NCBI GenBank assembly: GCA_029262635.1
Contig: JAJCZA010000029.1
Coordinates: 29,938 to 93,937 of the forward strand
Length of the DNA: 64,000 bases
Reading direction: 5' to 3'
DNA from: Vampirovibrionales bacterium
GTDB taxonomy: Bacteria > Cyanobacteriota > Vampirovibrionia > Vampirovibrionales > Vampirovibrionaceae
The translations under genes were made by a program, and so were the position numbers. Below, in pieces: positions 4,656 through 29,256 of this stretch. Position 1 is the stretch's first letter. Each line of letters starts with the position of its first letter. The notes under the pieces are model-generated. The model was not told the DNA's origin. It did no database searches and worked only from the letters and a program-made list of their open reading frames with translations.

Positions 4656-6854
4656 CTATGGGGTCAACTCGTTTAAATAGACTCTTGTAGGTTTTTTTAG
4701 TGTTTTAACGCCAATCAGCGCTAGGATGGTGCCAATTTCGTAGGCGTTCGGATCCGGGACGGCGTATTCAGCCTTACTTCCTATTAAGACTCGAATCCCT
4801 TCGTCAGACGCGTTGCTCAATGCTTTTAACATTTCATCGCTGTTGGTTAATGCTTTTCTGAGCTGAGTTTGGGCACTTTCTCGGTTGTTATTTAATATTT
4901 TTGTTAATTGAGTCAATAGGCTGTCGATTGTATAGGATGGGGTCTTGGAGGTTTGGATTGCTTGCAGGAGTTGTTCTCCCAGCTTCGGGTCGAATGCCTC
5001 AAACCCTTTTCGTAGCCGTTCTTCCATGGTCATAACCCCAATGGGTAAATGGCCATCACCATAACCATTCAATAATAAAACCGGTTGCTTTCCTTGAGGA
5101 ATCTTTTTGTTTCGTAGTCTTTGTGTTGCATCGGTCAGCACATCCGGCTCAATACCTGGAAAAATGGTAATAAACTCACCGGTTTCGTAAAACGCTTTAG
5201 GAATATGTAGGGTATTCTGTTGAATAAGTTCCCGATCCATAACCTCGCCGGCGTAATTTTCCCAGAGATCAGTGCGTGTAAATAAATCTCTTCCCTTATC
5301 TCGTGCTAAAAGAGCCGATAGCTTGATGCGCAGTTGTGAGGGTAAAATAAAGTCACACCCCTCAGACGCGTCTTTCATGGGTTTCTTTTGCTCGGTTTCA
5401 ATAATAAAAATCCCTTTTGAGGCGAGCTCTTCGATTTCCTGTTTAAACGCTTTATAATACCGGTGGGCGTATAGATTTCCTTCAATAACTGCGCCAGAAC
5501 CTTTTCCTTTGCTTTCCAGTCGCTTCACCAAATTATTAAATACATTTTTGGGTGTGCTTTTGTCGATGTTGATGTGTTCCACATACGTGGGTTTAAAGCC
5601 ATAAGACGGGAAAAAATCATTGACGTGAATATCCTGGCTTCTTTTTGCCAGAATCTTTTCCCACTCGTCTAAAAAGGCGGTGTCGAAAAAGATTTTTCCT
5701 TGTTCATCAAAATAGCCGACTGGGCGGTCATCTATGCTGGCAAAATAGGAGGCAGGGCCTGGTTTTCGCCAGGGTTTCTTTGAGCTGTAGGGGGTTTCAC
5801 CATCCGGCTTCCAGGGCTTTGTATTTATTTTTTTCACTCGGGTGGCTAAATGGATCTCTCTGCCAATAATCACATAGGTTCCAATGGGGACCGACACGTT
5901 TTTAGCCAGTTCTTCCGCATTTTTCTTGTTGGTAACGGCGTCTGTGCCGGGTTCTTCTTCCGTGGCGTAAGAGCCTGTTATTCCCATGACTTTGGGCAGC
6001 ATCAGGTAAGCGGAAAGGGAAGCGTCTTCGTCCAGGGTATCGGTTCCATGGGAAGCATAGAGCCCTGGACCACTCGGGTGGGGAAAGTCATAGTAGATAG
6101 AGATCTCTTCTGCGGGAATATAGTTTCCGGGTGTACCTAATATGATTCTTTTCTCTTTAATGGCTTTAAGATCTCTGATGACCGCTTTTCCCAGAGTGTC
6201 TAAAAAAGTGGCCTGGGTTTTTGGAGTTTGGTTTGAACTATCCAGTGTTGGAATCTCAGGATAGACAACAATTCGCTTTATTGGGATTGTACCGGTGCGA
6301 AGTGTACGAACAATGCCGGTACCCATGTTGGGGGCTTTGTCTGTTACCCGGGTGCCGGTCTTTGAATCCACGCGCATTACGATGGTGCCGCCCGTCTCTA
6401 ATTCATCGGGCTGACTGTTCTCTTCAAGCCATTGCGTAAAAAGGGTAACCACAGAATCTCGGTTCTTTTTAGGGGTTCTTTCAATAAAATCAAGAAATAG
6501 ACCGAACCTTCCACTAGCGGGGTTAAGGCCAAGCCGCTTAAAAAATTGTTGTATTGCTCGTTTCTCTTCTGAAGATAAAGAGGCGGGTGGGGTTTTCCCC
6601 GAAAAGAAAACATCGCTAGAAGACCTCTGATGGGAGAATAGAGGAACCTTCAGAGAGGCCTTGCGTACAAGTGAATTGTTATATTGAGGGTTATGCCCCT
6701 TTATTCCGGTCATTGTTTTCATGTGAAATAGATGACTTTCGGTTGGTTTTATCCCGTTGATTATGACATGGATAACGGATCCTATTAGAATGAAGCCTCT
6801 AAATTTTATAAAGTGCCTTGGCCGTATCATGACGTTACAAAAATTAATAAACAA
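4656..6854 (-). CDS. Large orphan secreted/membrane-anchored protein (about 730 aa), function unknown
   Basis: Long ORF with consistent coding bias and a signal-peptide-like segment (MIRPRHFIKFRGFILIGSVIHVIING) from an internal Met at about 6830. I recognise no catalytic motifs. Confidence 0.6.
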   Translation of the reverse strand: MFINFCNVMIRPRHFIKFRGFILIGSVIHVIINGIKPTESHLFHMKTMTGIKGHNPQYNNSLVRKASLKVPLFSHQRSSSDVFFSGKTPPASLSSEEKRAIQQFFKRLGLNPASGRFGLFLDFIERTPKKNRDSVVTLFTQWLEENSQPDELETGGTIVMRVDSKTGTRVTDKAPNMGTGIVRTLRTGTIPIKRIVVYPEIPTLDSSNQTPKTQATFLDTLGKAVIRDLKAIKEKRIILGTPGNYIPAEEISIYYDFPHPSGPGLYASHGTDTLDEDASLSAYLMLPKVMGITGSYATEEEPGTDAVTNKKNAEELAKNVSVPIGTYVIIGREIHLATRVKKINTKPWKPDGETPYSSKKPWRKPGPASYFASIDDRPVGYFDEQGKIFFDTAFLDEWEKILAKRSQDIHVNDFFPSYGFKPTYVEHINIDKSTPKNVFNNLVKRLESKGKGSGAVIEGNLYAHRYYKAFKQEIEELASKGIFIIETEQKKPMKDASEGCDFILPSQLRIKLSALLARDKGRDLFTRTDLWENYAGEVMDRELIQQNTLHIPKAFYETGEFITIFPGIEPDVLTDATQRLRNKKIPQGKQPVLLLNGYGDGHLPIGVMTMEERLRKGFEAFDPKLGEQLLQAIQTSKTPSYTIDSLLTQLTKILNNNRESAQTQLRKALTNSDEMLKALSNASDEGIRVLIGSKAEYAVPDPNAYEIGTILALIGVKTLKKPTRVYLNELTP

Positions 6855-7006
6855 GAAAGCAAGGCCTTTGAGATGGGGTTTTATGGACTTTTTGTTTATT
6901 ATGTGTTAAAATTATATTGGTATAATTCCTTGTAATCACCATTCTAGAGAGATCTTGGCAAAATCTTTCGTGCTTTGTATTAACAAACCTGAATGAGAGG
7001 GAACCC

Positions 7007-7507
7007 TTGCGTCAGGTTCTTTTGCTAAATTCATCTTACGAGCCCCTGAATGTCTGTTCGTGGAGGCGTGCCGTTGTCCTGATGGTCAAAGGCAAGGCCG
7101 TGGCCTTGGAAGTGGAGCAACAGCAGAATTTAGGCAGTGGCATTAATCTACCTTTGGTGATTCGCCTGCTTTATTACGTGAAGATTCCCCATAAGGATAT
7201 TCCATTGACCCGGCGCAATGTTATGCATCGGGACCATTATATGTGCCAATATTGCGGAAAAAAATCGGATTTGACCATTGATCATGTGATTCCACGTTCT
7301 AAAGGCGGGCAGGATCGATGGGATAACGTGGTGGTAGCCTGCCTAAAGTGCAATGTGGGTAAAGGAAGCAAGAGTGTGAAAGAGGCGGGACTCACGTTAA
7401 AAAATAAGCCGGTTCGTCCCCAGTATTTTATGCATTTTGAGTTGTCAAAGCATCGTAACCGGGCTTTAAGAACGGATGAACGGTGGCAGAAGTACCTGTT
7501 TTTCTAA
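7007..7507 (+). CDS. HNH endonuclease (stand-alone, McrA-like)
   Basis: HRDHYMCQYCGKKSDLTIDHVIPRSKGGQDRWDNVVVACLKCNVGKG is an HNH motif with paired Cys. TTG start, with GAGGGA 5 nt upstream. Confidence 0.8.
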   Translation: MRQVLLLNSSYEPLNVCSWRRAVVLMVKGKAVALEVEQQQNLGSGINLPLVIRLLYYVKIPHKDIPLTRRNVMHRDHYMCQYCGKKSDLTIDHVIPRSKGGQDRWDNVVVACLKCNVGKGSKSVKEAGLTLKNKPVRPQYFMHFELSKHRNRALRTDERWQKYLFF

Positions 7508-7532
7508 CGATTAATTTTTAGAGCTCAAGAGC

Positions 7533-7811
7533 TTAATTTTTACGTAATCGTTCACGAAGGCTGGTTAAACATTGGGTTTCCTCGCCAGGACGAATCTGCC
7601 CTTCGGCATCGACGTGGGCTTTAATGGCCTTAATCATCTCGATAATGTCATCGTAGTTGAGTGAGCCGTCGTTGTTGAGGTCAAGCCGCTTTTTTTCGTC
7701 CGGTGAAAGCTGATTAAAGAGTGCCTTGTTTTGCACTAAGTTTCGTAAAATAGCCAGATCGTTTTGGTCGACTTTGCCGTCACCATCAAGATCGCCGAAC
7801 CGCTTGTCCAT
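7533..7811 (-). CDS. Stand-alone dockerin-like / EF-hand Ca-binding protein (92 aa)
   Basis: Two about 22-aa Ca-binding repeats: GDLDGDGKVDQNDLAILRNLV and LDLNNDGSLNYDDIIEMIKAI. No signal peptide and no catalytic domain. Confidence 0.6.
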   Translation of the reverse strand: MDKRFGDLDGDGKVDQNDLAILRNLVQNKALFNQLSPDEKKRLDLNNDGSLNYDDIIEMIKAIKAHVDAEGQIRPGEETQCLTSLRERLRKN

Positions 7812-8100
7812 AAGATTGAGTCTCCATTCCTCTTAAAAACTGATAGTCCTGAAAAGTGGGGGCGTGTTTGAAAAAGACTTCTTTGGCTGAATAAGCCGTC
7901 TGAGGTGTTGGAGCGAAGGTGCCATGAACTAACTGAGTCATTCCAATGGGGCGTTCTTCTTCTTCAAAAATCAAATCTTCCAAGGCCTCGCCAATCATTG
8001 AGAAAAGGCTTTGGTGTGGGCGCAATTCCTCTTGAAATGCGATTGTGTCATGATTAGAAAAACTTGGATTGGATGTGATAAATTTCATGTTATTCGCCAT
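7786..8100 (-). CDS. Hypothetical protein (104 aa), upstream of and overlapping the dockerin-like ORF
   Basis: ORF on the same strand as 7533-7811 with a 26-nt overlap. Protein-like composition, no known motifs. Confidence 0.35.
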   Translation of the reverse strand: MANNMKFITSNPSFSNHDTIAFQEELRPHQSLFSMIGEALEDLIFEEEERPIGMTQLVHGTFAPTPQTAYSAKEVFFKHAPTFQDYQFLRGMETQSYGQAVRRS

Positions 8101-8291
8101 ACCATAGATTTCCTCACAGTTTCCGACTTCTTAGCCCCACCGGTGTTTTTTGTTCGTTTTTTCGAACACCCCTCTTATTTTCGGGTCGTGAAAATTCTTT
8201 GGGGTGGGTGACCTTCCAGATAATAATCATTTTAATCCAGATTACAATAAAGTGCCCGAAAAGCCGATAAAAACAGGAAAACTTACGCCAT

Positions 8292-8807
8292 ATGAAGGAA
8301 TCCCACACGCGAAGCTCTTCCTCTGCTCATCATCGTTGGATGGAAATATGTCTGGGGCTAGCCGAAAACGCCCTTCCAGAAGATGTCCCGGTGGGCGCAA
8401 TACTTTTGTATGAGGGTGAAATAATTGCTCAAGCTTGTAATTGGCGGGAAAGGGATCAAAATCCGGTGGGTCATGCGGAGATCTCAGTTCTGCAAGAGGC
8501 GTCGAAAAAACTGGGGCGTTGGCGACTGACAAATACAACGCTGGTTGTTACTCTTGAGCCTTGTCCGATGTGTGCTTCAGCTATTTTACAAGCTCGGGTA
8601 GCTCAGGTGGTGTTTGGTGCTTATGATCCGCTTATGGGAGCTTGCGGGAGCAAGTATCATTTGTTTAATGATGCCCGTGCCAAGACTCGGATCACAGGAG
8701 GGGTGTTGGAAGGCCCGTGTGCTAAACTTTTACGCGATTTTTTTAGGGGAACAGGCGGCCAGCTTTCCTTTGATAAAAGAGAAAAACTGTCATGGGACCT
8801 GTTTTAG
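8292..8807 (+). CDS. tadA: tRNA-specific adenosine deaminase
   Basis: HAEISVLQEA...LVVTLEPCPMCASAIL matches the CDA zinc motifs H(A)E and PCxxC. An alternative start at ATG 8340 gives a canonical 155-aa protein. Confidence 0.88.
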   Translation: MKESHTRSSSSAHHRWMEICLGLAENALPEDVPVGAILLYEGEIIAQACNWRERDQNPVGHAEISVLQEASKKLGRWRLTNTTLVVTLEPCPMCASAILQARVAQVVFGAYDPLMGACGSKYHLFNDARAKTRITGGVLEGPCAKLLRDFFRGTGGQLSFDKREKLSWDLF

Positions 8808-8938
8808 ATGCTAAATCCCTCCTCTACTTAAAGGAACTCCCACACGAAAATGAGATAATTCGATATAATAATAGTTCTAGTGACATGCGGCACAGGAATA
8901 AACGAATAGGACTCAATAAAGTAGAAGGATAGGCCATT

Positions 8939-9076
8939 GTGAGTGAATACGTTTTTAAATTAAAAAAAGGGGATTTGGAGCTTGAGTTAAAAAGTGATGA
9001 CTCGAAGTTCATTGAAACCCAGATGGATAATTGGCGAAACATGCTCATTACTCAGGAAGATGATAAAAAAGATTAG
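8939..9076 (+). CDS. Small protein (45 aa) paralogous to the N-terminal module of the downstream Pro/Gln-rich protein
   Basis: GTG start with GAAGGA 10 nt upstream (hand-found; below the ORF-track size cutoff). YVFKLKKGDLELELKSDDSKFIETQMDNWRNMLI aligns to YEIVINKDELLIELSSDDVYFISKQMDKWFKILL of the 9115 ORF. Confidence 0.45.
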   Translation: MSEYVFKLKKGDLELELKSDDSKFIETQMDNWRNMLITQEDDKKD

Positions 9077-9114
9077 AGTCAGGACCAATGGCTAAAGAGA
9101 CAGGAATTTGACCG

Positions 9115-10287
9115 ATGGATGGGCAAGGACATACCTACGAAATTGTAATTAATAAAGACGAACTTCTGATTGAGCTGTCGTCAGATGATGTTTACTTTAT
9201 TTCCAAGCAGATGGATAAATGGTTCAAAATCCTGTTGGATGATAGCTATGTTCCTGTCAGTATACCCACCCCACCTCAAGCATTGCCAGCTCCTCCTGCT
9301 CAGGAAGAAGAACGTTCTCCTCAACCACCTTCTCTTCCACCAGAGCAACCTCAGCCGACCCAACAGCCGATTATGTCAGCTAACGACATGAGTCAGGTTC
9401 ACTTGCCCCATGAAATGCCTTCACAGCAATATTCTCAACAAGCGTATACTCAACCTGTTCAGTCTCATCCTGGGGTTCAGCCCTCTGTCATGCCTGCTCC
9501 GCCCCCTGTAGAAAACTATCCCCAGCCTGTTCAAAATTATAATCAACCTCAACAGAATCAAGCTGTTCAGCCTATGTTACCCCCTGTAGAGAACTCAACT
9601 CCTACACCGATACCGGCCGCTCATACCGCTCCGCCGAGTTCAATGCAGCCCATGCGGCCTTCTCCAGCTATTTCCCAACGTATGTCACCTTCAACAGCTC
9701 AGGTACAGCAACAAATTAACCCTTCGGCTCAGCCGGCGGCCCCGTTGCCACAGACGGAGTCGGTCCCTCACCCCATGGCTTCAACTCCTCCTGGAAGCGG
9801 GCCGGAATATTATCTGCCAGAACCGGAGGAGGTTTCTTTGCCTCAAGAAGCACCGGGTTTGGAAGCGCCATTACCTGCTGCTCTTGTGGAACAAACAGAA
9901 GAGGGAGAAGGCGATTTTGAGCGGGTTATGGATACGCTCATGGAGGATTTAGGCGAAAGTGATGCGACGCCATTTCAAGAAGAAGCTGACGAAACCATTA
10001 CCTCTTTGAGTGAACTGTGTAAAAAGGGGAATGCCAGTACGTCCGAAGATTTTATGTTGTTTACGGCTTATTATTTGACCTATTTTGAAGCGGTTGAGAA
10101 TTTTTCTCTTAAGCAACTAAACTCCGCAATGGTGAAATCGGGTTTAACCCCGGTAAATCACAGTGTCTTGGAAGTTGCACTTTCTAAAGGCTTTTTATCA
10201 ATGGTCCCTGATTTAACAGGGACTATGAATGTAACTGAGTATGCCTTAAGTCCTGAGGGTCAGCAGTACACAACCAACCTACTTTAG
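9115..10287 (+). CDS. Pro/Gln-rich low-complexity protein with N-terminal about 40-aa module and C-terminal globular domain
   Basis: 390-aa ORF. Residues about 50-250 are PQ-rich (PPQALPAPPAQEEE...QPVQNYNQPQQNQ). The C-terminal 120 aa are non-repetitive. Confidence 0.7.
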   Translation: MDGQGHTYEIVINKDELLIELSSDDVYFISKQMDKWFKILLDDSYVPVSIPTPPQALPAPPAQEEERSPQPPSLPPEQPQPTQQPIMSANDMSQVHLPHEMPSQQYSQQAYTQPVQSHPGVQPSVMPAPPPVENYPQPVQNYNQPQQNQAVQPMLPPVENSTPTPIPAAHTAPPSSMQPMRPSPAISQRMSPSTAQVQQQINPSAQPAAPLPQTESVPHPMASTPPGSGPEYYLPEPEEVSLPQEAPGLEAPLPAALVEQTEEGEGDFERVMDTLMEDLGESDATPFQEEADETITSLSELCKKGNASTSEDFMLFTAYYLTYFEAVENFSLKQLNSAMVKSGLTPVNHSVLEVALSKGFLSMVPDLTGTMNVTEYALSPEGQQYTTNLL

Positions 10288-10329
10288 GGCGGGTTACAGC
10301 GGTGATAAATAGACCCTTTGGTAATATCT

Positions 10330-10360
10330 ATTTACATAAAAAGCCCATTTTTATGTAAAT
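10330..10360. other. Perfect 13-bp AT-rich inverted repeat (ATTTACATAAAAA-gccca-TTTTTATGTAAAT) followed by a T-run; terminator and/or operator
   Basis: Read directly. It lies 43 nt after the 9115 ORF stop and about 90 nt upstream of prs, and is followed by tctgcatcttttttgcttttttg. Confidence 0.5.
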
Positions 10361-10438
10361 TCTGCATCTTTTTTGCTTTTTTGCTATTTTAAACCTGTAG
10401 AATATGACCGATAGCAAGCAGACTGGAGGGTTTTTCCC

Positions 10439-11434
10439 GTGACCGCAATCGAAATGAGGGTACCTGAGTTGGAGCAAGAGCGTAAGCCATCTGATACAAA
10501 TCAGGTTAAGATCTTCACCGGTCGTGCCAACCCCGTTCTTGCTGCGGAAATCGCTAAATACCTTGGGACTGAGTTAAGCGAGATTAATGTTAAAAATTTT
10601 AGTGATGGAGAAACTTACGTCAGGGTTGAGGAAAGTGTCCGAGGCCATGACGTTTTTGTTATTCAGCCGACTTGCAATCCGGTAAATGAAAATCTGATGG
10701 AACTGCTCCTGATGATTGATGCTCTCAAACGTTCTAGTGCCAACACCATTACAGCGGTAATTCCTTATTTTGGTTATGCTCGACAAGATCGAAAAACCGT
10801 GGGGCGAGAAGCGATTTCCGCTAAACTGGTTGCCGATATGATTTCAACGGCAGGTGCGCATCGGGTTGTGGCAATGGAGCTTCATACCGGACAGCTTCAA
10901 GGCTTTTTTAATATTTTAACGGATCATCTGTTCGCTACCCCGGCGTTTATGGCTTACCTGAAAGAGAAAAATCTGGACGATCTGGTGATTGTATCGCCCG
11001 ATGCGGGAGGGGTTGAGCGTGCTCGGGTTTATGCAAAAAAACTGGGCGCCCCCATTGCGATTATTGATAAACGGCGAAGCGAGCATAATAAAGCACAGGT
11101 CTACCACATTATTGGGGAAGTGAAGGACAAAAACGCTATTATTATTGATGACATGATCGACACCGGTGGTACCATTTGCGCCGGAGCTGAACTGGTTTTA
11201 AAAGAAGGTGCTAAAAGCGTATCAGCACTTGCCGCTCATGCGGTTTTTTCTGGCCCGGCAGTTAAGCGTTTGGAAGAATCAGTTTTCACTGAGGTTATTG
11301 TTAGTAACAGCATTCCCCTCTCGCCAGAGGCGGAAGCGTGCGAGAAGATTATACAACTTTCCATCGCTCCACTCTTAGGTGAGGCTATTCGTCGGATTCA
11401 TGACGATGAATCCGTTAGTCAGATGTTTGAGTAA
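10439..11434 (+). CDS. prs: Ribose-phosphate pyrophosphokinase (PRPP synthetase)
   Basis: VKIFTGRANPVLAAEIAKYLG, VAMELHTGQLQGFF and DDMIDTGGT are PRPP synthetase motifs. GTG start gives about 20 extra N-terminal residues. Confidence 0.92.
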   Translation: MTAIEMRVPELEQERKPSDTNQVKIFTGRANPVLAAEIAKYLGTELSEINVKNFSDGETYVRVEESVRGHDVFVIQPTCNPVNENLMELLLMIDALKRSSANTITAVIPYFGYARQDRKTVGREAISAKLVADMISTAGAHRVVAMELHTGQLQGFFNILTDHLFATPAFMAYLKEKNLDDLVIVSPDAGGVERARVYAKKLGAPIAIIDKRRSEHNKAQVYHIIGEVKDKNAIIIDDMIDTGGTICAGAELVLKEGAKSVSALAAHAVFSGPAVKRLEESVFTEVIVSNSIPLSPEAEACEKIIQLSIAPLLGEAIRRIHDDESVSQMFE

Positions 11435-11744
11435 CGTCTAACGGTTTCTTTCCGTGTAGGCCCTTTTCGCTTTTGGCACGACCGGGACTGTTTCAAGAAG
11501 ACTAATCTCACTGTTGCTACAAAAATAATAATTCATCTGTTTAGATGATGGGAATCGTAGCGCCGATAGTATATATTACAAATGTAGGGTTAAGCCGGAC
11601 TTACAACCCAAAACTAACGACCATAGGCTGTCTTCCTCAACTACTCAGCAAATGCTCTTTCCTTCGCTTCCGATTATTCTTTATGATCGGGGCGTTTTTG
11701 TTTCTAATTCTAGTTTAGCGAAATAAATTAGAGAAAAAATTTTC

Positions 11745-12155: not shown

Positions 12156-15100
12156 TTAGACAATACAAAGAGAGGGGCCAAAATGGTTTTTGAGCGTTGT
12201 CTCTAATTGTTCTCGTTCGTTGCTCACCCAAAATTGGGCACCAGTCTTGATGCGGCATTCATTTTTGATGTTAAGAATGACCGGGTTTGACCCCCGAGCT
12301 TTGGCCAAGAGGTTCCCAAGTAGGGCGATGTCCTCGTATCGAGGTATCTGTTCGAAAAATAAATTCAAAGGCTTAACCTCATCAATGGGACGAACCTCAT
12401 CGATAATAATGCTGTAATTTTCCTTATCATCGCCTCGAAAGGAGAGTTTGCCTTCCACGATAACCTTTTGTCCGTCCACGATGAACGGCTCCGCTTTTTC
12501 CAGTACGCTACTAAAGGCTACGATTTCTACCGGGGCGGTCAAATCCTCCAGTGTGGCAATCATCATGGGCGTGCCTTTTCGAGTGATGCGTTTTTGCACT
12601 TTGGATAGTAGGCCACCCAGAATGACTTTAGTGCCATCGTCCATAGACTTCAGCTCGTTGGCCTGATGGGTGACCATCATGGGCAGTTGATCAATCAGAC
12701 TGTCCAACGGATGGCTGGAGACGTAAAAGCCCAACAGTTCTTTTTCGGCTTGTTGAATGGTCTCGTTATCGTACTCTGAAGGGTCGCCGCTTAACATTAA
12801 ACCGCTGGTTTCCATGCCCTGATCCGTCATGAGGTCAAACAGGCTAGATTGTCCCGTGGCTTTTTGTTCTTGAATCCGGTTGCCAAACTGAATCAGGGTT
12901 TCCACATTTTCCAGTAAACGCTTGCGGGATTCGCCAAATTCGGAGAACGCACCGCAGCGAATCAGGGATTCCATGGTTTTTCGGTTCAATACTCGGGTAT
13001 CTACCCGGCGAAGAAAGTCTTCGAGTGAGTCGAAGAGCTTTTCGTCCCGAGCTTTGACGATTTCTTCCACCACGCCCATGCCCACGTTTTTTACCGAGGC
13101 TAACCCAAAGCGGATGGCTTCGCCGTCTGGGGTGAATTCGGCTCCAGAGGTCATGACGTCCGGTGCTAGAATTTTGATTCCCATTCGGCGGGCGGTGAGC
13201 ATGTAGTACTGGATTTTGTCTAAATCGTTCCGCACGCTTGAGAGTAGAGCTGAGAGATATTCAACCGGGTAATGGACTTTTAAATAGGCGGTTTGGTAAG
13301 CGACAAAAGCATAGGCCGCCGAGTGAGACCGGTTAAAACAATAGGCTGCAAACTCGCTCATCATGTCAAATAGCTCGTTAGAAAGGCTTTCCGGGACACT
13401 GTTTTCGTTACAGCCTTCCACAAAGCCGTCTCGCTCCTTGGCCATGACGTCGGCCTTTTTCTTGCCCATGGCCCGCCGGAGTAAATCTGCGCGTCCTAAT
13501 GAATAACCCGCCAAAATCTGAGCAATTTGCATGATCTGCTCTTGATAGACGACGGTGCCGTAGGTACTTTCCAAAATAGGCTCTAAGTCCGGGTGGGGGA
13601 AGACAATTTCCGAGCGCCCGTGTTTTCGATCCACAAACTGTTTGGCCATGCCGGAATTAAGTGGGCCGGGGCGAAACAAGGCGACTAGCGCGTTAATATC
13701 TTCAAACGTGGAGGGTTTTAGGTCTTTTTCCAGTTGCTTCATTCCACTGGATTCTAGCTGAAAAACCCCGTCTGTATCACCCAGTGATAGCATGGCGTAG
13801 ACTTTTTCATCATCTAGTGGGATGCTGTCAATTTCTAGGGCCACACCTTTTTTGTCTTTCACCCAACGAACAGTATTATCAATGATAGTCAGGTTTCGAA
13901 GGCCTAGGAAATCCATTTTAAGTAGTCCTAGCCGTTCTAAATCACCCATGGTGTATTGGGAAATCACCTGACCGTCTTTGGATTTCTGAATGGGCACAAT
14001 GTCCATCAGTGGATCCTTAGAAATTACCACACCTGCCGCATGAGTGCCCACGTTGCAAGCCGTTCCTTCTAGCTTCAGGGCCAGATCCACCAACTCTTTG
14101 ACTTCAGTTTTGGCTTCGTATTCGATGGCTAGTTCCATGCCCTTTTCGAGGGCGTCTTTGAGCTTGGTGCCTGGTGTGGCGGGAATCATTTTGGCCAGTC
14201 GATCGCTTTCAGCAAAGGGAATATCCATAACTCGGGCGACGGCTTTTAGTGCGGCACGGGCGGCCAGTGTACCAAATGTGGCAATCTGGCAGACTTTTTC
14301 CTTGCCATATAAATCCCGAACGTGTTGAATCACCTCTTCTCGACGTTCAATGCAGAAGTCGATATCAATATCAGGCATAGAGACCCGTTCCGGGTTTAGA
14401 AACCTTTCAAACAGGAGGTTATGCTCCAGTGGATCTAAATTTGTAATCCCCAGCACATAAGCCACAAGGCTTCCTGCCGCGGAGCCTCGACCAGGGCCAA
14501 CAGGAATGTTCAGTTCCCTCGCCCAATGGATGAACTCCCACGTAATGAGGAAATAAGCCGGAAAACCCATCTGGTTGATGATCCCCAGTTCATATTTCAG
14601 GCGCTTGTCTACGGTGTCATCAGGGTTCACTTCGCCATAGCGCTTTCGGGCATGTTCATAAACCACCCGCTCTAGCTCTTCCGCTTCACTGGTACCTTTG
14701 GGGAGCGGGTATTCCGGTAAAATAGAGACTCCTTGCTGGAGTTCCAGATTGCATTTATCGGCAACCTTGCCGGTGTTGTCGATAGCTCGCTTTACAATGG
14801 CCGAGTCCAGATGGTTGAACTTGAGAGCCAGCTCTTCGCCAGATTTAATATAGTATTCTGGTCCGTAGAACGAACCTCGATTGGATTCATGAACCGTTTT
14901 GCCTTCCTGCATGCAGAGCAAGATGCTATGAACTTCATGTTCACCGGCTCGGGTAAATCGACTGCTGTTGGTGGCAACCAGTTCCACGTTCAGTTCATCG
15001 GCGATTTTAATTGATTCGGTACTTAGACGATACTCGCCTTCTTTATCGTGGTCTTGCAGTTCAATGTAAAAATCATCGCCAAAAATAGCGTGGAGTCGTT

Positions 15101-15632
15101 GGGCATTGGCGTAAGCTTCCTCTGTATTTCCTCGTAAAAAGGGACGCCCAATCACTCCGGCCAGATCACCGCTCAGGGCTATAAGGCCTTCTGAATGTTG
15201 TTCCAGAAGCTTCCAGTTAATCCGGGGTTTATAATAAAATCCTTCAATCTGTGCCAGGCTCACCAGTTTGACAAGATTTTGATAGCCGGTCAGATTTTTG
15301 CAGAGGAGGGGCAGATAGTACCATTGCTGCTTGGTACTGCGATCCTGATGGTCGCCATCCACCAGAAAGACTTCACACCCGACGATAGGCTTAATGCCCG
15401 CATCTTTGGCTTTGTTATAAAACTCCACGGCACCGTACATGACCCCGCTATCGGTAATCCCCATGGCTGAAAATTTTTTCTCTTTGCCGACCTTGATTAA
15501 TTCGGGGATCTTGGTTGTGGCTTCCAGCAGGCTGTAATGGGTATGGATGTTCAATGGGACAAAGCCGGTTTCTGACTTTCCCTCAATGTCTTCAATCTTC
15601 CCAATGCTTTTTGTATCGCCCGTTTCCGTCAT
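12156..15632 (-). CDS. dnaE: DNA polymerase III alpha subunit
   Basis: 1158 aa. PHP domain (FVPLNIHTHYSLLEATTKI...), PDIDIDF catalytic motif, and ILAPDVMTSGAEF. Confidence 0.95.
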   Translation of the reverse strand: MTETGDTKSIGKIEDIEGKSETGFVPLNIHTHYSLLEATTKIPELIKVGKEKKFSAMGITDSGVMYGAVEFYNKAKDAGIKPIVGCEVFLVDGDHQDRSTKQQWYYLPLLCKNLTGYQNLVKLVSLAQIEGFYYKPRINWKLLEQHSEGLIALSGDLAGVIGRPFLRGNTEEAYANAQRLHAIFGDDFYIELQDHDKEGEYRLSTESIKIADELNVELVATNSSRFTRAGEHEVHSILLCMQEGKTVHESNRGSFYGPEYYIKSGEELALKFNHLDSAIVKRAIDNTGKVADKCNLELQQGVSILPEYPLPKGTSEAEELERVVYEHARKRYGEVNPDDTVDKRLKYELGIINQMGFPAYFLITWEFIHWARELNIPVGPGRGSAAGSLVAYVLGITNLDPLEHNLLFERFLNPERVSMPDIDIDFCIERREEVIQHVRDLYGKEKVCQIATFGTLAARAALKAVARVMDIPFAESDRLAKMIPATPGTKLKDALEKGMELAIEYEAKTEVKELVDLALKLEGTACNVGTHAAGVVISKDPLMDIVPIQKSKDGQVISQYTMGDLERLGLLKMDFLGLRNLTIIDNTVRWVKDKKGVALEIDSIPLDDEKVYAMLSLGDTDGVFQLESSGMKQLEKDLKPSTFEDINALVALFRPGPLNSGMAKQFVDRKHGRSEIVFPHPDLEPILESTYGTVVYQEQIMQIAQILAGYSLGRADLLRRAMGKKKADVMAKERDGFVEGCNENSVPESLSNELFDMMSEFAAYCFNRSHSAAYAFVAYQTAYLKVHYPVEYLSALLSSVRNDLDKIQYYMLTARRMGIKILAPDVMTSGAEFTPDGEAIRFGLASVKNVGMGVVEEIVKARDEKLFDSLEDFLRRVDTRVLNRKTMESLIRCGAFSEFGESRKRLLENVETLIQFGNRIQEQKATGQSSLFDLMTDQGMETSGLMLSGDPSEYDNETIQQAEKELLGFYVSSHPLDSLIDQLPMMVTHQANELKSMDDGTKVILGGLLSKVQKRITRKGTPMMIATLEDLTAPVEIVAFSSVLEKAEPFIVDGQKVIVEGKLSFRGDDKENYSIIIDEVRPIDEVKPLNLFFEQIPRYEDIALLGNLLAKARGSNPVILNIKNECRIKTGAQFWVSNEREQLETTLKNHFGPSLCIV

Positions 15633-15780
15633 CGTGGCGCCTTTTATCCTTTCATCATCTCTCTTCTCTCAATCTCTCTTTTCTTAGTTTTCCCTATTGT
15701 CGCATCGAACCCCACCCCCGTAAAGTAACAAAACAGAGAATCCTTCAGCATGAAATTTTATAAAAAACGGTTAAGGGGGT

Positions 15781-17535
15781 CTACTTGATTTGGTTATAGG
15801 CGCTGTTGAGTAAGCCCAGGACATTAATCAGGCTGGCGTTGTAGAGGATTTGCGTCTCGTTAACGGAAAACGCTTTTTCATCATCCACGTAGCTCATAGC
15901 TTGCATACCTTTGGGCGTTTTGCCATCGTTGGGATAGTTGTTGGGACCAGCGACCAGCAAGCCGGGAATCACTTGGCCGCCTCGCTGAACGAATCGATGG
16001 TAGGGGTGTTTGACTGAATTGGGAGAGATGCCCGTGACATAGGTGATATCCACCGGGTTCATGCCAAAGAAATAGTGCACCATATTGGCTGCTGCTTCCC
16101 GGTATTTATTCCCATGGGTCATTCGGTAAGCCGAAAGCAGGATTGAGGCGTGTTCCAGAATTTGATGGTTAGAGCCACGCGTGTATTGCAATACGCTTAC
16201 GTGGTATGAATTGTTGTTCACTCGCTTTACCAGCATATCGGCTGAGTGTACAATTTGACGTCGAAAATAGTTAACGATGGTTTTATCCCGTTTATCACTC
16301 TGGGTGTATAGAACATAGTTCTCCATGCCCAGAATCACCGGATTTTTCCAGGAATAAGGTTCTATCTTGACCGATTTGTAGTTTTTTTCAATATAGTGGG
16401 CGTATTTAGCTTTTCCTGTGGCAAGATACAGCTCGATGGCCGCCCACAGTCGGTAGTTTCTATCACCTGCGGCGTTAATGTACTCTCGTGAACCGGCATC
16501 GTCATCTAAATCGACGTCAAGGAGATTTTCCGGGTGGGTTTCCAGGTATTTCCAGGCCCGTTCAGCGGCAATTAAATTTTTGACGGCATAGCCAAAATCA
16601 GCTTTTTTATAATTCCTAGAAGCAATGGCCATAACGGCCGCTCCAATGGCCGTATCTTGCGATGTGACACCAAACACATAGCGACGTTGCGTATCGTATT
16701 CCGGTGATTTTGTCGTAGGAAAAGATTTACCAGCCACTTTTCTGTAAAACACTCCGTCGTTTCGTTGCATGGCCAACAACCAGTCTAATCCGAATTTAAT
16801 TTCATGCAGGTAGTCCGCTACATCACCCAATCCCGGCTCTGCCATCGGATAATCCAGCTTGAGATAGCGCATGTTTTTAGGATCGACTTCGTTTACGGCT
16901 AGCATTTTAGCAACGGACAGACCTGTGGTGGTTACAAATTTGGCGTAATTATTACTGTTATACCAACCACCGCCGGCGTCTTTAAAAAAAATATCGCCCG
17001 TGTCCCGATCTTCCACGTAACCATCTTCCAGGTGAGTTGCCTCGCGAAGAATCCGGTTATTTTTTCCGACAAGCTCTTGTCCGCTTCGCTGTAGATAAAA
17101 CGAACGAACCGAAGGGATCATAGCATCCCAGTACAAGAATTCGGAAATATGAATCGGCACACTAATATCCGTGCCCTTAATCCGGAGCTGAAAATCACCG
17201 GGCTGTTTAAAATCAGAAAAATCAACAATCCAACGTTCCGCACCGGGGCCTTGCATTTTGTCGTCGACAAAGCGCTTAACGCTTTCTAGCTTGTAAAGTA
17301 CTTTGCCGATTTTAAAGGGAATAGCGTGTTTATAGGTTGGATCAAAAATTTCCAGTTTAACCTCGGTGCCCTTGGGCACATCTTCTAGAATGGCATGTTT
17401 AGTTGCGTTGGGATGATAGCCCACCTGATCGACTTTGAGCGTATAGGCGTCGGCGAAAAAACTGCCCATGAGCAAAAGGCACACGACCCAGAAGAAAATA
17501 GAACGAGATATCCACTTCCACGTTTGATGATTCAT
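15781..17535 (-). CDS. Secreted GH9-family-like protein with N-terminal Ig-like (CelD_N) domain; catalytic DAGD motif replaced by NSNN
   Basis: Signal peptide MNHQTWKWISRSIFFWVVCLLLMGSFFADA. CelD_N start YTLKVDQVGYHP. GH9 block DAGGGWYNSNNYAKF (compare GGWYDAGDxxKF), HPYHRF, and C-terminal NETQILYNAS. Start chosen at ATG 17535; the track ORF extends to 17667. Confidence 0.75.
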   Translation of the reverse strand: MNHQTWKWISRSIFFWVVCLLLMGSFFADAYTLKVDQVGYHPNATKHAILEDVPKGTEVKLEIFDPTYKHAIPFKIGKVLYKLESVKRFVDDKMQGPGAERWIVDFSDFKQPGDFQLRIKGTDISVPIHISEFLYWDAMIPSVRSFYLQRSGQELVGKNNRILREATHLEDGYVEDRDTGDIFFKDAGGGWYNSNNYAKFVTTTGLSVAKMLAVNEVDPKNMRYLKLDYPMAEPGLGDVADYLHEIKFGLDWLLAMQRNDGVFYRKVAGKSFPTTKSPEYDTQRRYVFGVTSQDTAIGAAVMAIASRNYKKADFGYAVKNLIAAERAWKYLETHPENLLDVDLDDDAGSREYINAAGDRNYRLWAAIELYLATGKAKYAHYIEKNYKSVKIEPYSWKNPVILGMENYVLYTQSDKRDKTIVNYFRRQIVHSADMLVKRVNNNSYHVSVLQYTRGSNHQILEHASILLSAYRMTHGNKYREAAANMVHYFFGMNPVDITYVTGISPNSVKHPYHRFVQRGGQVIPGLLVAGPNNYPNDGKTPKGMQAMSYVDDEKAFSVNETQILYNASLINVLGLLNSAYNQIK

Positions 17536-17605
17536 TAGATAAGGTGTCCTCATATACAATTCAAAAGCAACTTTTGTAATATTAAGATACCTCAACCCAG
17601 CGCGT

Positions 17606-19297
17606 ATGTGTACAATGGATAGCATGTTTAGAACAAAACTTTTTGCAAAGCTGAATCTTGACTCCACACAGATGAGCCGAGGACTTTGGATTTTGCTGAT
17701 TTTGCTGATTCTTTTTGGGTCGGCTCTCCGATTGTTTCAGTGGGACGAACGAAGTCTATGGCAGGATGAAGTCTTTACGGTTTCTCTTGCCACGGGAAAT
17801 CCCCTGTTTGAATCAACCTTGTTGCCCGATAATTTTGAACCGGATCCGTCAACCCCTCAAGCGCCTGAATATTATCGAAAAAAAGCCAATGCTCTCCAGT
17901 CATGGGATGATTTTGTGGCTGGGCTTCAGCACAATATCCAGATGCCCTTCTATCCCTTTGTTATTCGTCATTGGGTCACGTTTTTGACTGATTCCCCGAT
18001 TCACCTGCGGATGTTATCGATTCTAGCCGGGGTATTGGCCATTCCCTCGGCGTTTTTTTTAGGACGAGAGCTTATGGATAACCGGCTTGGACTTCTTATG
18101 GCAGGCATCTTTACTTTATCCGGCTTTCAGTTGATTTATAGCCAAACGGCTCGGGTTTACGCCTTGCTCACCCTGATTACCTTACTCTCTTCATGGGTGC
18201 TTATTCGGCTAACTCGGTTGCCTCAAAGGAAAAAAAGCCTCCTCTGCTTGCTTTTTGCGGTGTTAAGCTTATTGGGGGCTTACAGTCACTACTTTTACGG
18301 GTTTATCCTGATTTTTCATGGCGCTTGGGCTGTATTGCAGAGTGTCAAGTCTTCTGAACTTAGAAAACCTTTGCTGATAACAGGTTTAATGATTGGCTTT
18401 TTTAGCCTGCCCGGCTTGTGGCTTCTTTTCAATCAACTCCAGTTTATTAAAACAATCGGGCATGGCAACCTCAATGGATTATGGGAACCGTTAAACCTGA
18501 TGGAACGCTTGTGGAGTAATCTGCTTTCTATGATTAGTCCCAAGGATACTCCGACAAAAATTGTTGTTTTTATGCTTATTATTGGAGGTGTTGTTCAGGG
18601 CCTTCGAAAAAAATTACCAGCGCCTCCACTGCTCTTTGCCGGCCTCTGGTTACTTATCCTGGTTGGTGGGCTGGTTAGTGTGGATCTTATCAGTGAAACC
18701 CATCGGATTATGTCCAAGCGTTACCTGATTTTAGCCTCACCGGCAATAGTTTTACTGCTTGCTTACGGGCTTTACGCTCTTTTTACCAGCTTTCCAAAGC
18801 AAAGAGTCATTGTTGGCCTTCTTTTTTGCGGTTTTGTGGGCTTAATGGCTCAAAACTGCGTTCAGGTGCTAAGCGGAGAGAAATTTTTACGTAAAGAGGA
18901 TTATCGAAGTGCTGGATTAGTGATTCAAGCGGAACACCAACCGGGTGATCTCGTTTTGATTTCTCATTCGGGTGTTCACGCGGCAGGAATGGCCTTTTAT
19001 TTACCAGATGTTATAACGATGGCAGGTATTAGTCGGCGAAATGAGGGTACAGTATGGCTACCCAGTAAACTGGCTCAACATTTAAGTGGGTTGACTCAGA
19101 ATAAGTCCAACGTCTGGCTGGTTGAAACGCATATCCGTCCTCGCTCGCTTCAACAAGCCATTGAAGCCTGGATGAACCAGAGTTATAGCCTGAAGAGTAC
19201 CCGAAAATTCAGCAGTGTCCGCCTACTCCAGTTTAAAAAAACAGGAAATGCAAGAGGCTTTAGAAGGATGAAAACCCGGCGTGCTGATCTAAAATAG
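17606..19297 (+). CDS. GT-C fold membrane glycosyltransferase (ArnT/PMT, GT39/GT83-like) #1
   Basis: Polytopic. First loop is LFQWDERSLWQDEVFT (the DE motif typical of PMT/ArnT). The start may be the internal Met at 17672 (MSRGLWILLILLILFG). Confidence 0.7.
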   Translation: MCTMDSMFRTKLFAKLNLDSTQMSRGLWILLILLILFGSALRLFQWDERSLWQDEVFTVSLATGNPLFESTLLPDNFEPDPSTPQAPEYYRKKANALQSWDDFVAGLQHNIQMPFYPFVIRHWVTFLTDSPIHLRMLSILAGVLAIPSAFFLGRELMDNRLGLLMAGIFTLSGFQLIYSQTARVYALLTLITLLSSWVLIRLTRLPQRKKSLLCLLFAVLSLLGAYSHYFYGFILIFHGAWAVLQSVKSSELRKPLLITGLMIGFFSLPGLWLLFNQLQFIKTIGHGNLNGLWEPLNLMERLWSNLLSMISPKDTPTKIVVFMLIIGGVVQGLRKKLPAPPLLFAGLWLLILVGGLVSVDLISETHRIMSKRYLILASPAIVLLLAYGLYALFTSFPKQRVIVGLLFCGFVGLMAQNCVQVLSGEKFLRKEDYRSAGLVIQAEHQPGDLVLISHSGVHAAGMAFYLPDVITMAGISRRNEGTVWLPSKLAQHLSGLTQNKSNVWLVETHIRPRSLQQAIEAWMNQSYSLKSTRKFSSVRLLQFKKTGNARGFRRMKTRRADLK

Positions 19298-19666: not shown

Positions 19667-20584
19667 CTAAATCTGAGGTTTTATTTGGCTAAAGATAGTC
19701 ACCCGTTCTTTTTTTGTACATCGGGCGTTATGCAAAGCATGACGAGCATAACGAACCAATGCGTCAGCGTCGGCCACTTCATCGGGATCGGATAGGGGGA
19801 ACCCGGCTATTCCAGAGTGAATGGACAGGGTTTCTATGTCTTTTCCCGAATGAAATTCGACACCCTGAATGGATTGAACAATTCGGTTGGCCAGTATTTT
19901 TGCGCCTTTTTCCGTACTGCGAGGCAGGAGCAGGCCAATTTCGTCATCGCCGATGCGAGCGATAATATCTTCGTTTCGTTTGTGAGTCTGAATTACATCG
20001 GCCATTTTACAGACAATATTGTTTACAAAATCATAGCCGTAGCTATCCAGGTGAAGTTGAAAGAAATCCACACCAATAATAACGCAGGCCAAGGGGGACA
20101 TATGTCGCTTGGACAGTGAAATTTCTTCATTCAGGCGTTGCAGAAAGTAACGCCGGTTGTAGAGTTGAGTGATTTCATCCTGTTGGGCCGAGGCTTCCAC
20201 GTTGGCTAAAAGCTCACTTTGACGCAAGGCGGTTGAAACCCGACTTAAAATATCCAGCGAGGTCATGGGCGAGATTAAAAAATCAGTTTCAAAGGAGTGC
20301 CCTGATATTTTTTCGGCCTCTTGTTCAGCGCATATTTCAATGCATGTGGCTGTCGGCAAGGTCGACTTTACTTGGGCGACTAAAGGTTTACCCGGAGAAA
20401 AGGGCATCAAAACAACAGCGTAACTTTGACCCTTCAGTTCTTCGTTCAAGGCATCGAGTCCTGAAAGGGGCAAGAGTTTGTAATGTGGATTTAAGACGTC
20501 CTGAATCTGTTTTAACTCTGTAATATTGGGTTCGTCCAAAATATAAATCGTACTCATGCTCACCATTATAGCAATGGATAACAA
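19667..20584 (-). CDS. Pseudo-receiver + degenerate GGDEF domain protein (A-site GDDEI, I-site RNED intact); probable c-di-GMP effector
   Basis: The REC-like N-terminus lacks the phospho-acceptor Asp (AVVLMPF versus DxxMP). The GGDEF domain reads RNEDIIARIGDDEIGLL, which aligns to PleD RESDLLARYGGEEF. Confidence 0.8.
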   Translation of the reverse strand: MLSIAIMVSMSTIYILDEPNITELKQIQDVLNPHYKLLPLSGLDALNEELKGQSYAVVLMPFSPGKPLVAQVKSTLPTATCIEICAEQEAEKISGHSFETDFLISPMTSLDILSRVSTALRQSELLANVEASAQQDEITQLYNRRYFLQRLNEEISLSKRHMSPLACVIIGVDFFQLHLDSYGYDFVNNIVCKMADVIQTHKRNEDIIARIGDDEIGLLLPRSTEKGAKILANRIVQSIQGVEFHSGKDIETLSIHSGIAGFPLSDPDEVADADALVRYARHALHNARCTKKERVTIFSQIKPQI

Positions 20585-27575: not shown

Positions 27576-28386
27576 GAATACCCTGACGGAGCGTCAGATT
27601 ACTGAAGCTCGTTTTCATGACGAATGGGCCAAATCCATCAATTTTACGGAAATTGATCCGGAAATCACTTTTGAGGCGCCAACGGCCATTGAGTGTCAGT
27701 ATGTCTTGTCGCAAATAGATGAACTAGCTGGTAAGCGTATTTTGGATCTGGGCTGTGGCAGTGGTGAATCGGGCGTGTACTTTGCCAAGCAGGGTGCTGA
27801 GGTTTCGGCCTGTGATATTTCCCCTCAGTTTATTGAAGTGGCAAAACAGTTGGCGAACCATCACAGTGTGTCGCTGGACACGGTTGTCTGTCCGGCGGAA
27901 ACTCTTCCCTATCCGGATGACTCGTTTGATATTGTGTTTGCCAACGGCGTTTTACACCACGTGGACATCCCGCTAGCCATGGAAGAGATTCGTCGGGTAC
28001 TTAAGCCAAGGGGGAAAGGATTTTTCGTCGAGCCTTTGCCCTATAATCCGGTGATTAATATCTATCGTTGGATTGCTAAAGAGGTTCGCACGCCGGACGA
28101 GAAACCTCTGACCTTTACCGATATCGGTACTATCCGTAAACGCTTTCCCAAAACCCATGTAGAATACTTTTGGTTTTTTACGTTGGGGGTTTTTCTGTAT
28201 TTTTTCCTGATTGAACGGGCCAGTACGTCGGAACGGTATTGGAAAAAAATTCTTTATGAAGCGGATAAGTACAAAGCTATGTTCAGCTTTCTAAAAAAAC
28301 TGGATGACGTTATTTTACCTGCCCTGCCCTTACTCAAGCCTCTGTGCTGGAACATGGTTATTCAGATTCAAAAAAACGAGAAATAA
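27505..28386 (+). CDS. Class I SAM-dependent methyltransferase (Methyltransf_11-like) with C-terminal hydrophobic segment
   Basis: ILDLGCGSGESGVYFAKQGAEVSACDISPQFIEVA is motif I. A C-terminal segment FWFFTLGVFLYFFLI follows. Confidence 0.8.
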   Translation: MTTQTPEKSHTPLPDNPTPSLATENTLTERQITEARFHDEWAKSINFTEIDPEITFEAPTAIECQYVLSQIDELAGKRILDLGCGSGESGVYFAKQGAEVSACDISPQFIEVAKQLANHHSVSLDTVVCPAETLPYPDDSFDIVFANGVLHHVDIPLAMEEIRRVLKPRGKGFFVEPLPYNPVINIYRWIAKEVRTPDEKPLTFTDIGTIRKRFPKTHVEYFWFFTLGVFLYFFLIERASTSERYWKKILYEADKYKAMFSFLKKLDDVILPALPLLKPLCWNMVIQIQKNEK

Positions 28387-28423
28387 GTAAGCCCTGACAA
28401 CTCTCGGAGACTTTACCTCTTTT

Positions 28424-29254: not shown

Positions 29255-29256
29255 TT

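Follow-up and report, generated by a model that had tools for sequence, protein, structure and literature searches.

A probable pseudo-glycosidase of family GH9 at a conserved locus of Vampirovibrionales

The analyzed sequence, herein referred to as the window, is a 64,000-nucleotide (nt) stretch of contig JAJCZA010000029.1 from a Vampirovibrionales bacterium. Vampirovibrionales are predatory, non-photosynthetic relatives of cyanobacteria. The gene studied here is located at 15781..17535 (stop codon included) on the minus strand of the window and was identified by analysis of open reading frames (ORFs), Pfam searches, AlphaFold2 (AF2) modelling, and Foldseek searches. It encodes a 584-amino-acid (aa) protein of glycoside hydrolase family 9 (GH9), identical to the public protein P0001, which has Asn at both positions of the catalytic aspartates of this family and is probably a pseudoenzyme. 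The ORF ending at 15781 has an alternative start, the GTG at 17667, giving a product of 628 aa. The ATG at 17535 is the better start because the sequence GAGGA sits 11 nt upstream of it, a signal-peptide-like segment follows it, and it agrees with the N-termini of the orthologues and with the public gene calls for P0001 (584 aa). All features of the protein described below lie on the same strand. The putative signal peptide (aa 1-29, MNHQTWKWISRSIFFWVVCLLLMGSFFADA, 17449..17535) contains a basic n-region (N-terminus MNHQTWKWISR), a hydrophobic core, and A-D-A before Tyr30 (predicted boundary ADA/YT); the orthologues have equivalent segments. A promoter and terminator scan of positions 15500-17800 gave counts at chance level.

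The original prediction described a secreted GH9-fold protein with a CelD_N domain, and both domains were recovered. The immunoglobulin-like (Ig-like) CelD_N domain occupies aa 33-122 (17170..17439; Pfam PF02927, E-value 1.1e-9) and is formed by beta strands in the AF2 model, while the secretion part of the claim is consistent with the predicted signal peptide. The (alpha/alpha)6 domain occupies aa 135-573 (15817..17133) and matches the full Pfam profile PF00759 (Glyco_hydro_9; E-value 8e-69, 233.5 bits against a cutoff of 27.7, profile positions 1-444 of 444). The AF2 model, built with 59 homologues as input, has a predicted local distance difference test (pLDDT) score of 91.6 and a predicted template modelling (pTM) score of 0.91, with a helix at residues 2-24 in the signal-peptide-like segment. 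In Foldseek searches, this model matched the GH9 crystal structures 3x17, 5u0h, 6dht, and 1clc with E-values from 5e-41 to 1e-31 and template modelling (TM) scores of 0.82-0.90. The phmmer E-values for the same relatives from the Protein Data Bank were 5.6e-86 for 3x17 (LC-CelG), 2.3e-68 for 5u0h (J30), 3e-46 for 6dht (BoGH9A), and 2.1e-44 for 1clc (CelD). Thus, by its full-length profile match and its (alpha/alpha)6 barrel preceded by an N-terminal Ig-like domain, the protein belongs to GH9 and to the CelD subfamily. In NCBIfam, only a CelK match far below the threshold was found for this protein, and no match was found for its uncharacterised neighbours.

LC-CelG and J30, both endoglucanases of the CelD/Cel9A subfamily, have the same two-domain architecture of Ig-like and GH9 domains, with Foldseek TM scores of 0.83-0.90 (for 3x17, E-value 5e-41 and TM scores of 0.85/0.90). 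The blocks that the window protein has in common with these two enzymes are GGW, Y197, E245, W252, MQ, Y352, W396, SN, H513-R514, GPN, Y549-D551, and NE...YNA. The differences include an overall identity of only about 32% as well as the presence in the window protein of Asn/Asn in the base motif, Phe in place of Tyr, Arg in place of both W408 and Gly304, and Tyr in place of His467. CelD of Clostridium thermocellum (1clc), the founding structure with an Ig-like and a GH9 domain, also has the same fold (TM scores of 0.82/0.88) and a CelD_N domain. In contrast to CelD, which has a dockerin and Zn/Ca sites, the window protein has no dockerin, and three of its four Zn-ligand positions are changed. 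The CelD-type structural Zn site (C, C, H, H) is gone in the subclade of the window protein, where the corresponding residues are S151, T167, H168, and Y192 and only H168 is kept. The stretch with this site corresponds to window positions 16936-17085 (aa 151-200), and the site is retained in most of the Vampirovibrio orthologues.

In the GH9 mechanism, an Asp of the DAGD motif deprotonates the attacking water, the other Asp and a Tyr help, and the Glu of the C-terminal NE block protonates the leaving group (PMC6038386). In J30, these roles belong to D147 (base), D144 and Y151 (helpers), and E523 (acid); the +1 subsite is formed by W226/Y519 and H467/R469 and the -1/-2 subsites by Y306/W352/W408, with G304 at -1 (PMC6038386). 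The second Asp of DAGD is the base, as demonstrated by azide rescue for Asp58 of T. fusca Cel9A (cited in PMC4071793). The GH9 catalytic centre is composed of the DAGD aspartates and the NE glutamate (PMC4071793), and a study of a Vibrio cholerae GH9 enzyme is in essential agreement (PMC6096475).

Residues of the window protein were mapped by HMMER alignments to 3x17 and 5u0h, with the roles known for J30 (PMC6038386) and with 145 canonical relatives as the background. The segment GGWYNSNNYAKF (aa 189-200, 16936..16971) is aligned column for column with GGWHDAGDYGKY of 3x17 and GGWYDAGDYGKY of J30, the flanks being identical. The replacement of both DAGD aspartates by Asn, giving NSNN, was the central claim of the original prediction and is borne out by these alignments. 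Thus, the position of the base (J30 D147) is occupied by N196 (codon AAT), and that of the helper Asp (J30 D144, Cel9A D55) by N193 (codon AAC); each of these positions has Asp in 145 of the 145 canonical relatives. The helper Tyr (J30 Y151; Tyr in 131/145) is replaced by F200. In the block TRGSN (aa 452-456, 16168..16182), the counterpart of WGSN, Arg453 stands in place of the Trp that stacks on the -1/-2 sugars (J30 W408; Trp in 144/145). In R350-E351-Y352 (16480..16488), Arg350 replaces the Gly whose main-chain nitrogen binds the -1 sugar (J30 G304; Gly in 140/145). The block PYHRF (aa 511-515, 15991..16005), which the original prediction had also recognised, is aligned with PHHRL; here, Tyr512 replaces the His that forms a hydrogen bond at +1 (J30 H467; His in 110/145), while His513 and Arg514 are kept.

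The remaining active-site positions are kept or, in the +1 sandwich, remain aromatic. The C-terminal NE...NA block named in the same prediction is NETQILYNA (aa 559-567, 15835..15861), with SVNETQILYNA aligned against ETNEPAIDYNA, and it has Glu560 at the position of the catalytic acid (J30 E523, Cel9A E424; Glu in 145/145). The +1 sandwich retains its aromatic character through F272 (J30 W226; Phe in 79 and Trp in 61 of the 145 relatives) and F556, just upstream of the NE block (J30 Y519; Tyr in 120, Phe in 12, and Trp in 11). Also kept are R514 for the +1 hydrogen bond (J30 R469; Arg in 95/145), Y352 and W396 for the -1/-2 hydrogen bonds (J30 Y306 and W352; Tyr in 145/145 and Trp in 142/145, respectively), and Y565, the counterpart of the residue that stabilises W408 (J30 Y528; Tyr in 71 and Trp in 56). 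In total, 6 of the 13 literature-assigned active-site positions are altered, and the net charge at five positions of the centre (193, 196, 350, 453, and 560) changes from -3 in canonical enzymes to +1 in the window protein. Among the features of an active hydrolase, the base Asp, the helper Asp and Tyr, and the Trp and Gly of the -1/-2 subsites are missing, and the acid is present; the +1 subsite has Phe272, Phe556, and Arg514, with Tyr512 as the counterpart of His467.

Two trivial explanations for the altered motif were considered and rejected. The possibility, raised together with the original prediction, that the true DAGD lies elsewhere in the protein finds no candidate: the sole other nearby DxxD, DTGD at aa 178-181, lies in a variable loop, is not conserved, and reads ETGE or DG-E in the closest relatives. 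A sequencing or assembly error was rejected because Asn at both positions recurs in the 76%- and 57%-identical orthologues, which come from independent assemblies. A further change, M in place of E231, the Glu of the canonical 'PE', was not counted as a loss: it is an artefact of the loop register, as E186 of J30 aligns with the clade-conserved E233.

Relatives of the protein were sought among 5.8 billion proteins and, exhaustively with HMMER, among 1.84 billion cluster representatives, and one genome per GTDB species was scanned for related loci. The closest loci, with 33-57% identity, were found in Vampirovibrionales, Vampirovibrio, and metagenome-assembled genomes (MAGs) of Melainabacteria. 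These are followed, at 30-36% identity, by loci of photosynthetic cyanobacteria (Moorena, Pleurocapsa, Chamaesiphon, Waterburya, and Leptolyngbya) and a few of Desulfoluna and other organisms. The gene order CTP_transf-like(-) - orf156(-) - GGDEF(+) - GH9(+) - DnaE(+) was found in at least 12 Vampirovibrionales genomes, down to a GH9 identity of 34%; this fixed position identifies the window gene and the Vampirovibrionales GH9 genes as orthologous copies of one core gene. All Vampirovibrionales proteins fall into a single clade of a crude neighbour-joining tree, and the orthologues are intact in every Vampirovibrionales locus examined. The GH9 protein of V. chlorellavorus (P0008) and other such orthologues are syntenic and 42-45% identical to the window protein and have the same architecture, a signal peptide, and the same loss of the stacking Trp. 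They differ in having Asn-Gly-Ser/Gly-Asp together with Glu, so that the second Asp and the acid are intact, and in keeping the Cys of the Zn site. By comparison with these P0008-type proteins, the subclade of the window protein has NS(G/N)(N/D) in the motif and E, E, K, or R at the acid position, and it has acquired a divergently transcribed GT-C neighbour.

The degeneration of the catalytic residues extends over the whole clade. The motif reads NSGN, NSGN, and NSGD in the nearest relatives, at 76, 57, and 52% identity, respectively, and NG(G/S)D in about 20 proteins at 42-45% identity, including that of Vampirovibrio chlorellavorus. Further relatives have TDGG, ESGS, DDGG, DGSN, and other variants, and the canonical DAGD becomes the norm solely below approximately 35% identity to the window protein. 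The acid column contains E in the window protein and in its 76%-identical orthologue (P0002), K in P0003, and R in P0004, the latter two being the nearest outgroup pair; elsewhere A, Q, H, G, and S were found. Combined states of motif and acid in the clade include NGGD/E, NSGD/R, NSGN/K, TDGG/E, ESGS/H, and DDGG/Q. Position 350, which is Arg in the window protein, is Pro in the closest sister proteins.

This variability was quantified on two non-redundant sets, one of 129 canonical relatives and one of 28 members of the clade. The columns of D193, D196, and E560 have an entropy of 0 in the canonical relatives and of 2.46, 2.28, and 2.85 bits, respectively, in the clade, which places them between the 56th and 78th percentiles of variability there. 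Across the entire protein, constraint has relaxed most at W453, E560, G350, D193, F272, Y556, G198, D196, G195, and W396, and these top relaxed positions are the literature-defined active-site positions. Simultaneously, new invariant residues specific to the clade were found, namely W136, D137, H41, N577, K319, D65, E233, and P399. The states DAGD/E, NGxD/E, NSGD/R, NSGN/K, and NSNN/E thus provide a natural series for the passage from glycosidase to pseudoenzyme at one syntenic locus.

Two observations extend this picture. In Vampirovibrio sp. MAG.114 (L014, positions 1000-2886), the orthologue at the GGDEF-GH9 locus keeps both DAGD and NE and has Ala in place of the stacking Trp; this orthologue offers a natural comparator of an 'ancestral-like' type. 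Degenerate GH9 proteins also form a second group, independent of the first, in photosynthetic cyanobacteria of the Pleurocapsa/Waterburya type, with the states DTGA/E, DGGS/G, DGGA/G, NGAA/Q, and NGGG/Q (loci L029, L033, L041, L054, L063, L066, L067, L070, L075, L076, L078, and L082). In this group, the stacking Trp is retained in nearly all members, and some of the MAGs also have a canonical copy. The existence of this second group suggests that GH9 has degenerated repeatedly within Cyanobacteriota. The GH9 protein of Moorena has the state NSGD/E.

The window gene and the gene for its 76%-identical orthologue differ by a proportion of nonsynonymous differences (pN) of 0.166 and a proportion of synonymous differences (pS) of 0.83; since the synonymous sites are saturated, only pN/pS is reported for this pair, and the less diverged P0003/P0004 pair was used for the ratio of substitution rates (dN/dS). 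The pN values of the neighbouring genes in the former comparison are 0.18 for GGDEF and 0.24 for the GT-C-like gene. Between P0003 and P0004, which have K and R at the acid position, dN/dS is 0.07 for the GH9-like gene, 0.07 for GGDEF, 0.044 for DnaE, and 0.11 for the GT-C-like gene. The GH9-like lineage is under strong purifying selection. Two features of a pseudoenzyme were therefore found here: residues on which catalysis depends in the parent family have been lost, and the gene has conserved orthologues and is under purifying selection. The loss of catalytic and several substrate-binding residues would also be expected of a decaying former cellulase gene without current function, but such decay is contradicted by the selection data and hardly credible. 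The ORF is intact and preceded by a ribosome-binding site, the orthologues are intact in all Vampirovibrionales loci examined, pS is saturated at a pN of 0.17, and dN/dS is 0.07 in the closest pair. Moreover, about 60 positions of the fold core are still invariant, and new clade-specific invariants (W136, D137, H41, N577, and K319) have appeared.

We therefore favour, with a probability of about 65%, the reading that the window protein is a pseudoenzyme, in which the cellulase fold is kept for a non-hydrolytic, probably binding, role with a remodelled and more basic cleft. The protein would be exported by the Sec pathway as a two-domain molecule of an Ig-like CelD_N domain and an (alpha/alpha)6 barrel that has lost the canonical machinery of an inverting hydrolase. 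Because the base and helper aspartates are Asn (N196 and N193) and the helper Tyr is Phe (F200), the usual activation of water is no longer available, and Arg453 and Arg350 rebuild the -1/-2 subsites. The cleft would persist and probably hold a ligand without cleaving it, possibly a different or anionic glycan, because F272/F556, Arg514, Tyr352, Trp396, and Glu560 are retained. The two new arginines, together with the retained +1 site, Glu560, Arg514, Tyr352, and Trp396, suggest a more basic, remodelled cleft able to accommodate another, possibly anionic, glycan. Hydrolysis of beta-1,4-glucans by the GH9 mechanism is not expected, and after export the protein would serve a non-hydrolytic purpose, likely as a binding or structural component in the periplasm or at the cell surface. 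Selection would keep the protein for this purpose; the catalytic positions of the order-wide orthologue are no longer constrained. The original prediction had offered, as its first option, an inactivated cellulase-like protein reused as a glycan-binding or lectin module. The inactivation is well supported by the changes Asp to Asn, Tyr to Phe, and Trp to Arg and by K/R at the acid position of relatives under selection; the lectin part fares less well. Binding of canonical beta-1,4-glucans by the window protein is doubtful because the -1/-2 Trp platform is lost and the -1 Gly is Arg.

Such a reuse has precedents. The GH18 chitinase-like lectins YKL-40 and Ym1 are inactive glycosidase folds under selection, with the cleft reused for binding. 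The principle is the same, but these lectins are eukaryotic TIM barrels of GH18 with demonstrated ligand binding, whereas the window protein has an (alpha/alpha)6 barrel of GH9.

Several points weigh against this pseudoenzyme reading. Inverting glycosidases without a base can keep trace activity. The window protein and P0002 still have Glu560 and most of the contacts at +1 and -1; these residues would be needless for a purely structural role, and their retention fits a modified catalytic or binding function. In most Vampirovibrio orthologues, Asn-x-x-Asp and Glu are conserved and may represent a working, if unusual, catalytic pair, so that the clade may not be uniformly inactive. Finally, the constant company of GGDEF and DnaE may be a matter of gene order and not of function.

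The main rival explanation, which we consider unlikely, is that the protein has remained an enzyme, with Glu560 as the acid, but works by an altered mechanism, the second option of the original prediction, or catalyses a different reaction. In one variant of this explanation, activation of the nucleophile would fall to another carboxylate of the protein, with Asp186, Asp181, and Glu233 as examples, or to a carboxylate of the substrate. In another, inorganic phosphate would be held by Arg350, Arg453, Asn193, and Asn196, as in the inverting glycoside phosphorylases; in a third, the protein would be a transglycosylase or a lyase acting on an acidic glycan. Consistent with such an enzyme are Glu560, Arg514, Tyr352, Trp396, His513, and the +1 aromatic pair, kept in both the window protein and P0002, the two Arg introduced at the catalytic centre, an acid-rich hairpin just upstream of the motif in the clade, and the Asn-x-x-Asp and Glu of most Vampirovibrio orthologues. 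However, in the closest sisters the acid is replaced by Lys or Arg and residue 350 is Pro, and these proteins are nevertheless under equally strong selection; therefore, the conserved role of the subclade needs neither Glu560 nor Arg350. The catalytic columns are also among the most variable ones in the clade, and no candidate for a replacement base is both clade-specific and shown to lie near the site, Asp186 being common in canonical enzymes as well. The phosphorylase variant is further opposed by the predicted signal peptide, as the known glycoside phosphorylases are, to our knowledge, cytoplasmic.

The inverting glycoside phosphorylases of GH65 and GH94 have an (alpha/alpha)6 barrel in which the general acid is kept and phosphate replaces water, with no carboxylate base. 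They differ from the window protein in being unrelated, cytoplasmic families with defined phosphate-binding residues, and the sisters of the window protein lack the acid. A cleft that recognises an anionic ligand, for instance a glycan of the algal wall or the envelope with acidic or sulfated groups, or a use of phosphate as the nucleophile, in either case in connection with the GDDEI and GT-C neighbours described below, is an improbable extension of these ideas. If it were true, a whole order would have turned the GH9 cellulase of its core gene set into an exported protein of a new kind, and the phosphate variant would represent the first GH9-derived phosphorylase.

In the searchable literature, no earlier account was found of a lineage of GH9 pseudoenzymes, nor of this GH9 feature in Vampirovibrionales or Melainabacteria. 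Inactive glycosidase folds are a known phenomenon; a GH9 pseudoenzyme lineage in Vampirovibrionales is apparently undescribed. In the analysis of the V. chlorellavorus genome, glycoside hydrolases were treated collectively as prey-degrading enzymes (PMC4451040), and in another study Vampirovibrio was stated to lack endoglucanases. Surveys of genomes and metagenomes list the window protein and its orthologues in all Vampirovibrionales as 'endoglucanase' or 'GH9 cellulase'. The protein is a GH9 member by sequence and fold but, judged from its residues, fails the defining catalytic features and does not merit annotation as an endoglucanase. Should the lineage prove non-hydrolytic, inferences of a cellulolytic or prey-wall-degrading capacity would be wrong for this gene. 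The finding for the clade is somewhat broader than the original observation on a single protein, and it would not be very surprising to a specialist in carbohydrate-active enzymes. Its value lies mainly in a well-defined target for biochemistry.

The genes around the GH9-like gene are consistent with the fixed locus. DnaE, the alpha subunit of DNA polymerase III (12156..15632, minus strand; identified by Pfam), is the conserved downstream neighbour in at least 12 genomes. Divergent from the GH9-like gene lies a gene for a PMT_2/GT-C-like membrane protein (17606..19297, plus strand; Pfam PMT_2, E-value 3e-6). This gene was found between GGDEF and GH9 solely in the NS.. subclade, that is, in the window and in loci L001, L002/L006, and L087; other Vampirovibrionales loci have no such insertion, and GGDEF is directly upstream of GH9. 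The conserved upstream neighbour of GH9 across the order is a gene for a GGDEF-domain protein with the degenerate motif GDDEI (19667..20584, minus strand; Pfam GGDEF, E-value 4e-29). GD[DE]E[IL] in place of GGDEF was found in nearly all of the 17 orthologous loci (L001, L002, L004-L016, L018, and L020). The GDDEI protein has no membrane segment or periplasmic part, and its N-terminal region of about 130 aa has a weak similarity to response regulators. It is probably not an active diguanylate cyclase.

These neighbours bear on another explanation, according to which the GH9-like protein is a non-hydrolytic accessory of polysaccharide synthesis or secretion, comparable to BcsZ, XcsC, or KORRIGAN, and tied both to cyclic di-GMP (c-di-GMP), through the GGDEF protein, and to the adjacent GT-C glycosyltransferase. 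In most Vampirovibrionales, the gene directly preceding GH9, in the same orientation, is that of the GGDEF protein, the PMT_2/GT-C-like gene is divergently paired with the GH9 gene in all four subclade members, and the cellulose synthases of bacteria, cyanobacteria, and plants are known to have endoglucanases as partners (reviewed in PMC12430437). Nevertheless, this explanation is quite improbable. The GGDEF motif is degenerate, and its protein lacks any membrane or periplasmic part. The synteny may be non-functional, since DnaE is as conserved a neighbour, and the canonical cyanobacterial relatives examined are located in different clusters of the type DUF3131-GDSL-GH2-GH9. A link to Xcs or Bcs cellulose synthesis was also rejected, as neither the window ORFs of at least 150 aa nor the surroundings of the orthologues contained a gene for a BcsA/XcsA-like synthase, a PilZ protein, or an HlyD-like protein. 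The sole glycosyltransferase family 2 (GT2) gene of the window (26487-27575) encodes a protein of 362 aa without PilZ.

The original prediction also pointed to a stand-alone dockerin-like protein of 92 aa and to the absence of cohesin and scaffoldin. This ORF (7533-7811, minus strand) matches Dockerin_1 with an E-value of 3.7e-9 and also EF-hand, and no cohesin was found in any window ORF of at least 150 aa. A link between this ORF and the GH9-like protein, hinted at in that prediction, is not supported. No dockerin match was found in the GH9-like protein by Pfam, so it does not qualify as a cellulosomal enzyme; no cohesin was found in those window ORFs, and a distance of 8 kb separates the two genes, filled by unrelated ones, among them genes for a deaminase, a ribose-phosphate pyrophosphokinase, and DnaE. 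The dockerin-like gene adjoins a gene for an HNH endonuclease (7007-7507, plus strand).

Additional features were observed elsewhere in the window and in the compared loci. A glycan-modification cluster at 26487-31680 (plus strand) comprises the GT2 gene, three genes for S-adenosylmethionine-dependent methyltransferases, and a second PMT_2/GT-C-like gene. The gene at 48948-51653 (minus strand) encodes a 901-aa TPR-GAF-HD_5 protein of the HD-GYP type, likely a c-di-GMP phosphodiesterase or a signalling protein. In the 732-aa protein encoded at 4656-6854 (minus strand), the recognised part is only a segment of an asparaginase N-terminal domain (aa 268-346). Two canonical relatives have a different glycan-processing context. 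The GH9 gene of Tumidithrix helvetica (L060, positions 3134-9659) is located directly downstream of a GH2-family gene, which is preceded by DUF3131 and GDSL-lipase genes. In Desulfoluna butyratoxydans (L077, positions 5626-11443), a canonical GH9 gene is likewise directly downstream of a GH2-family gene and is followed by a GT2 gene.

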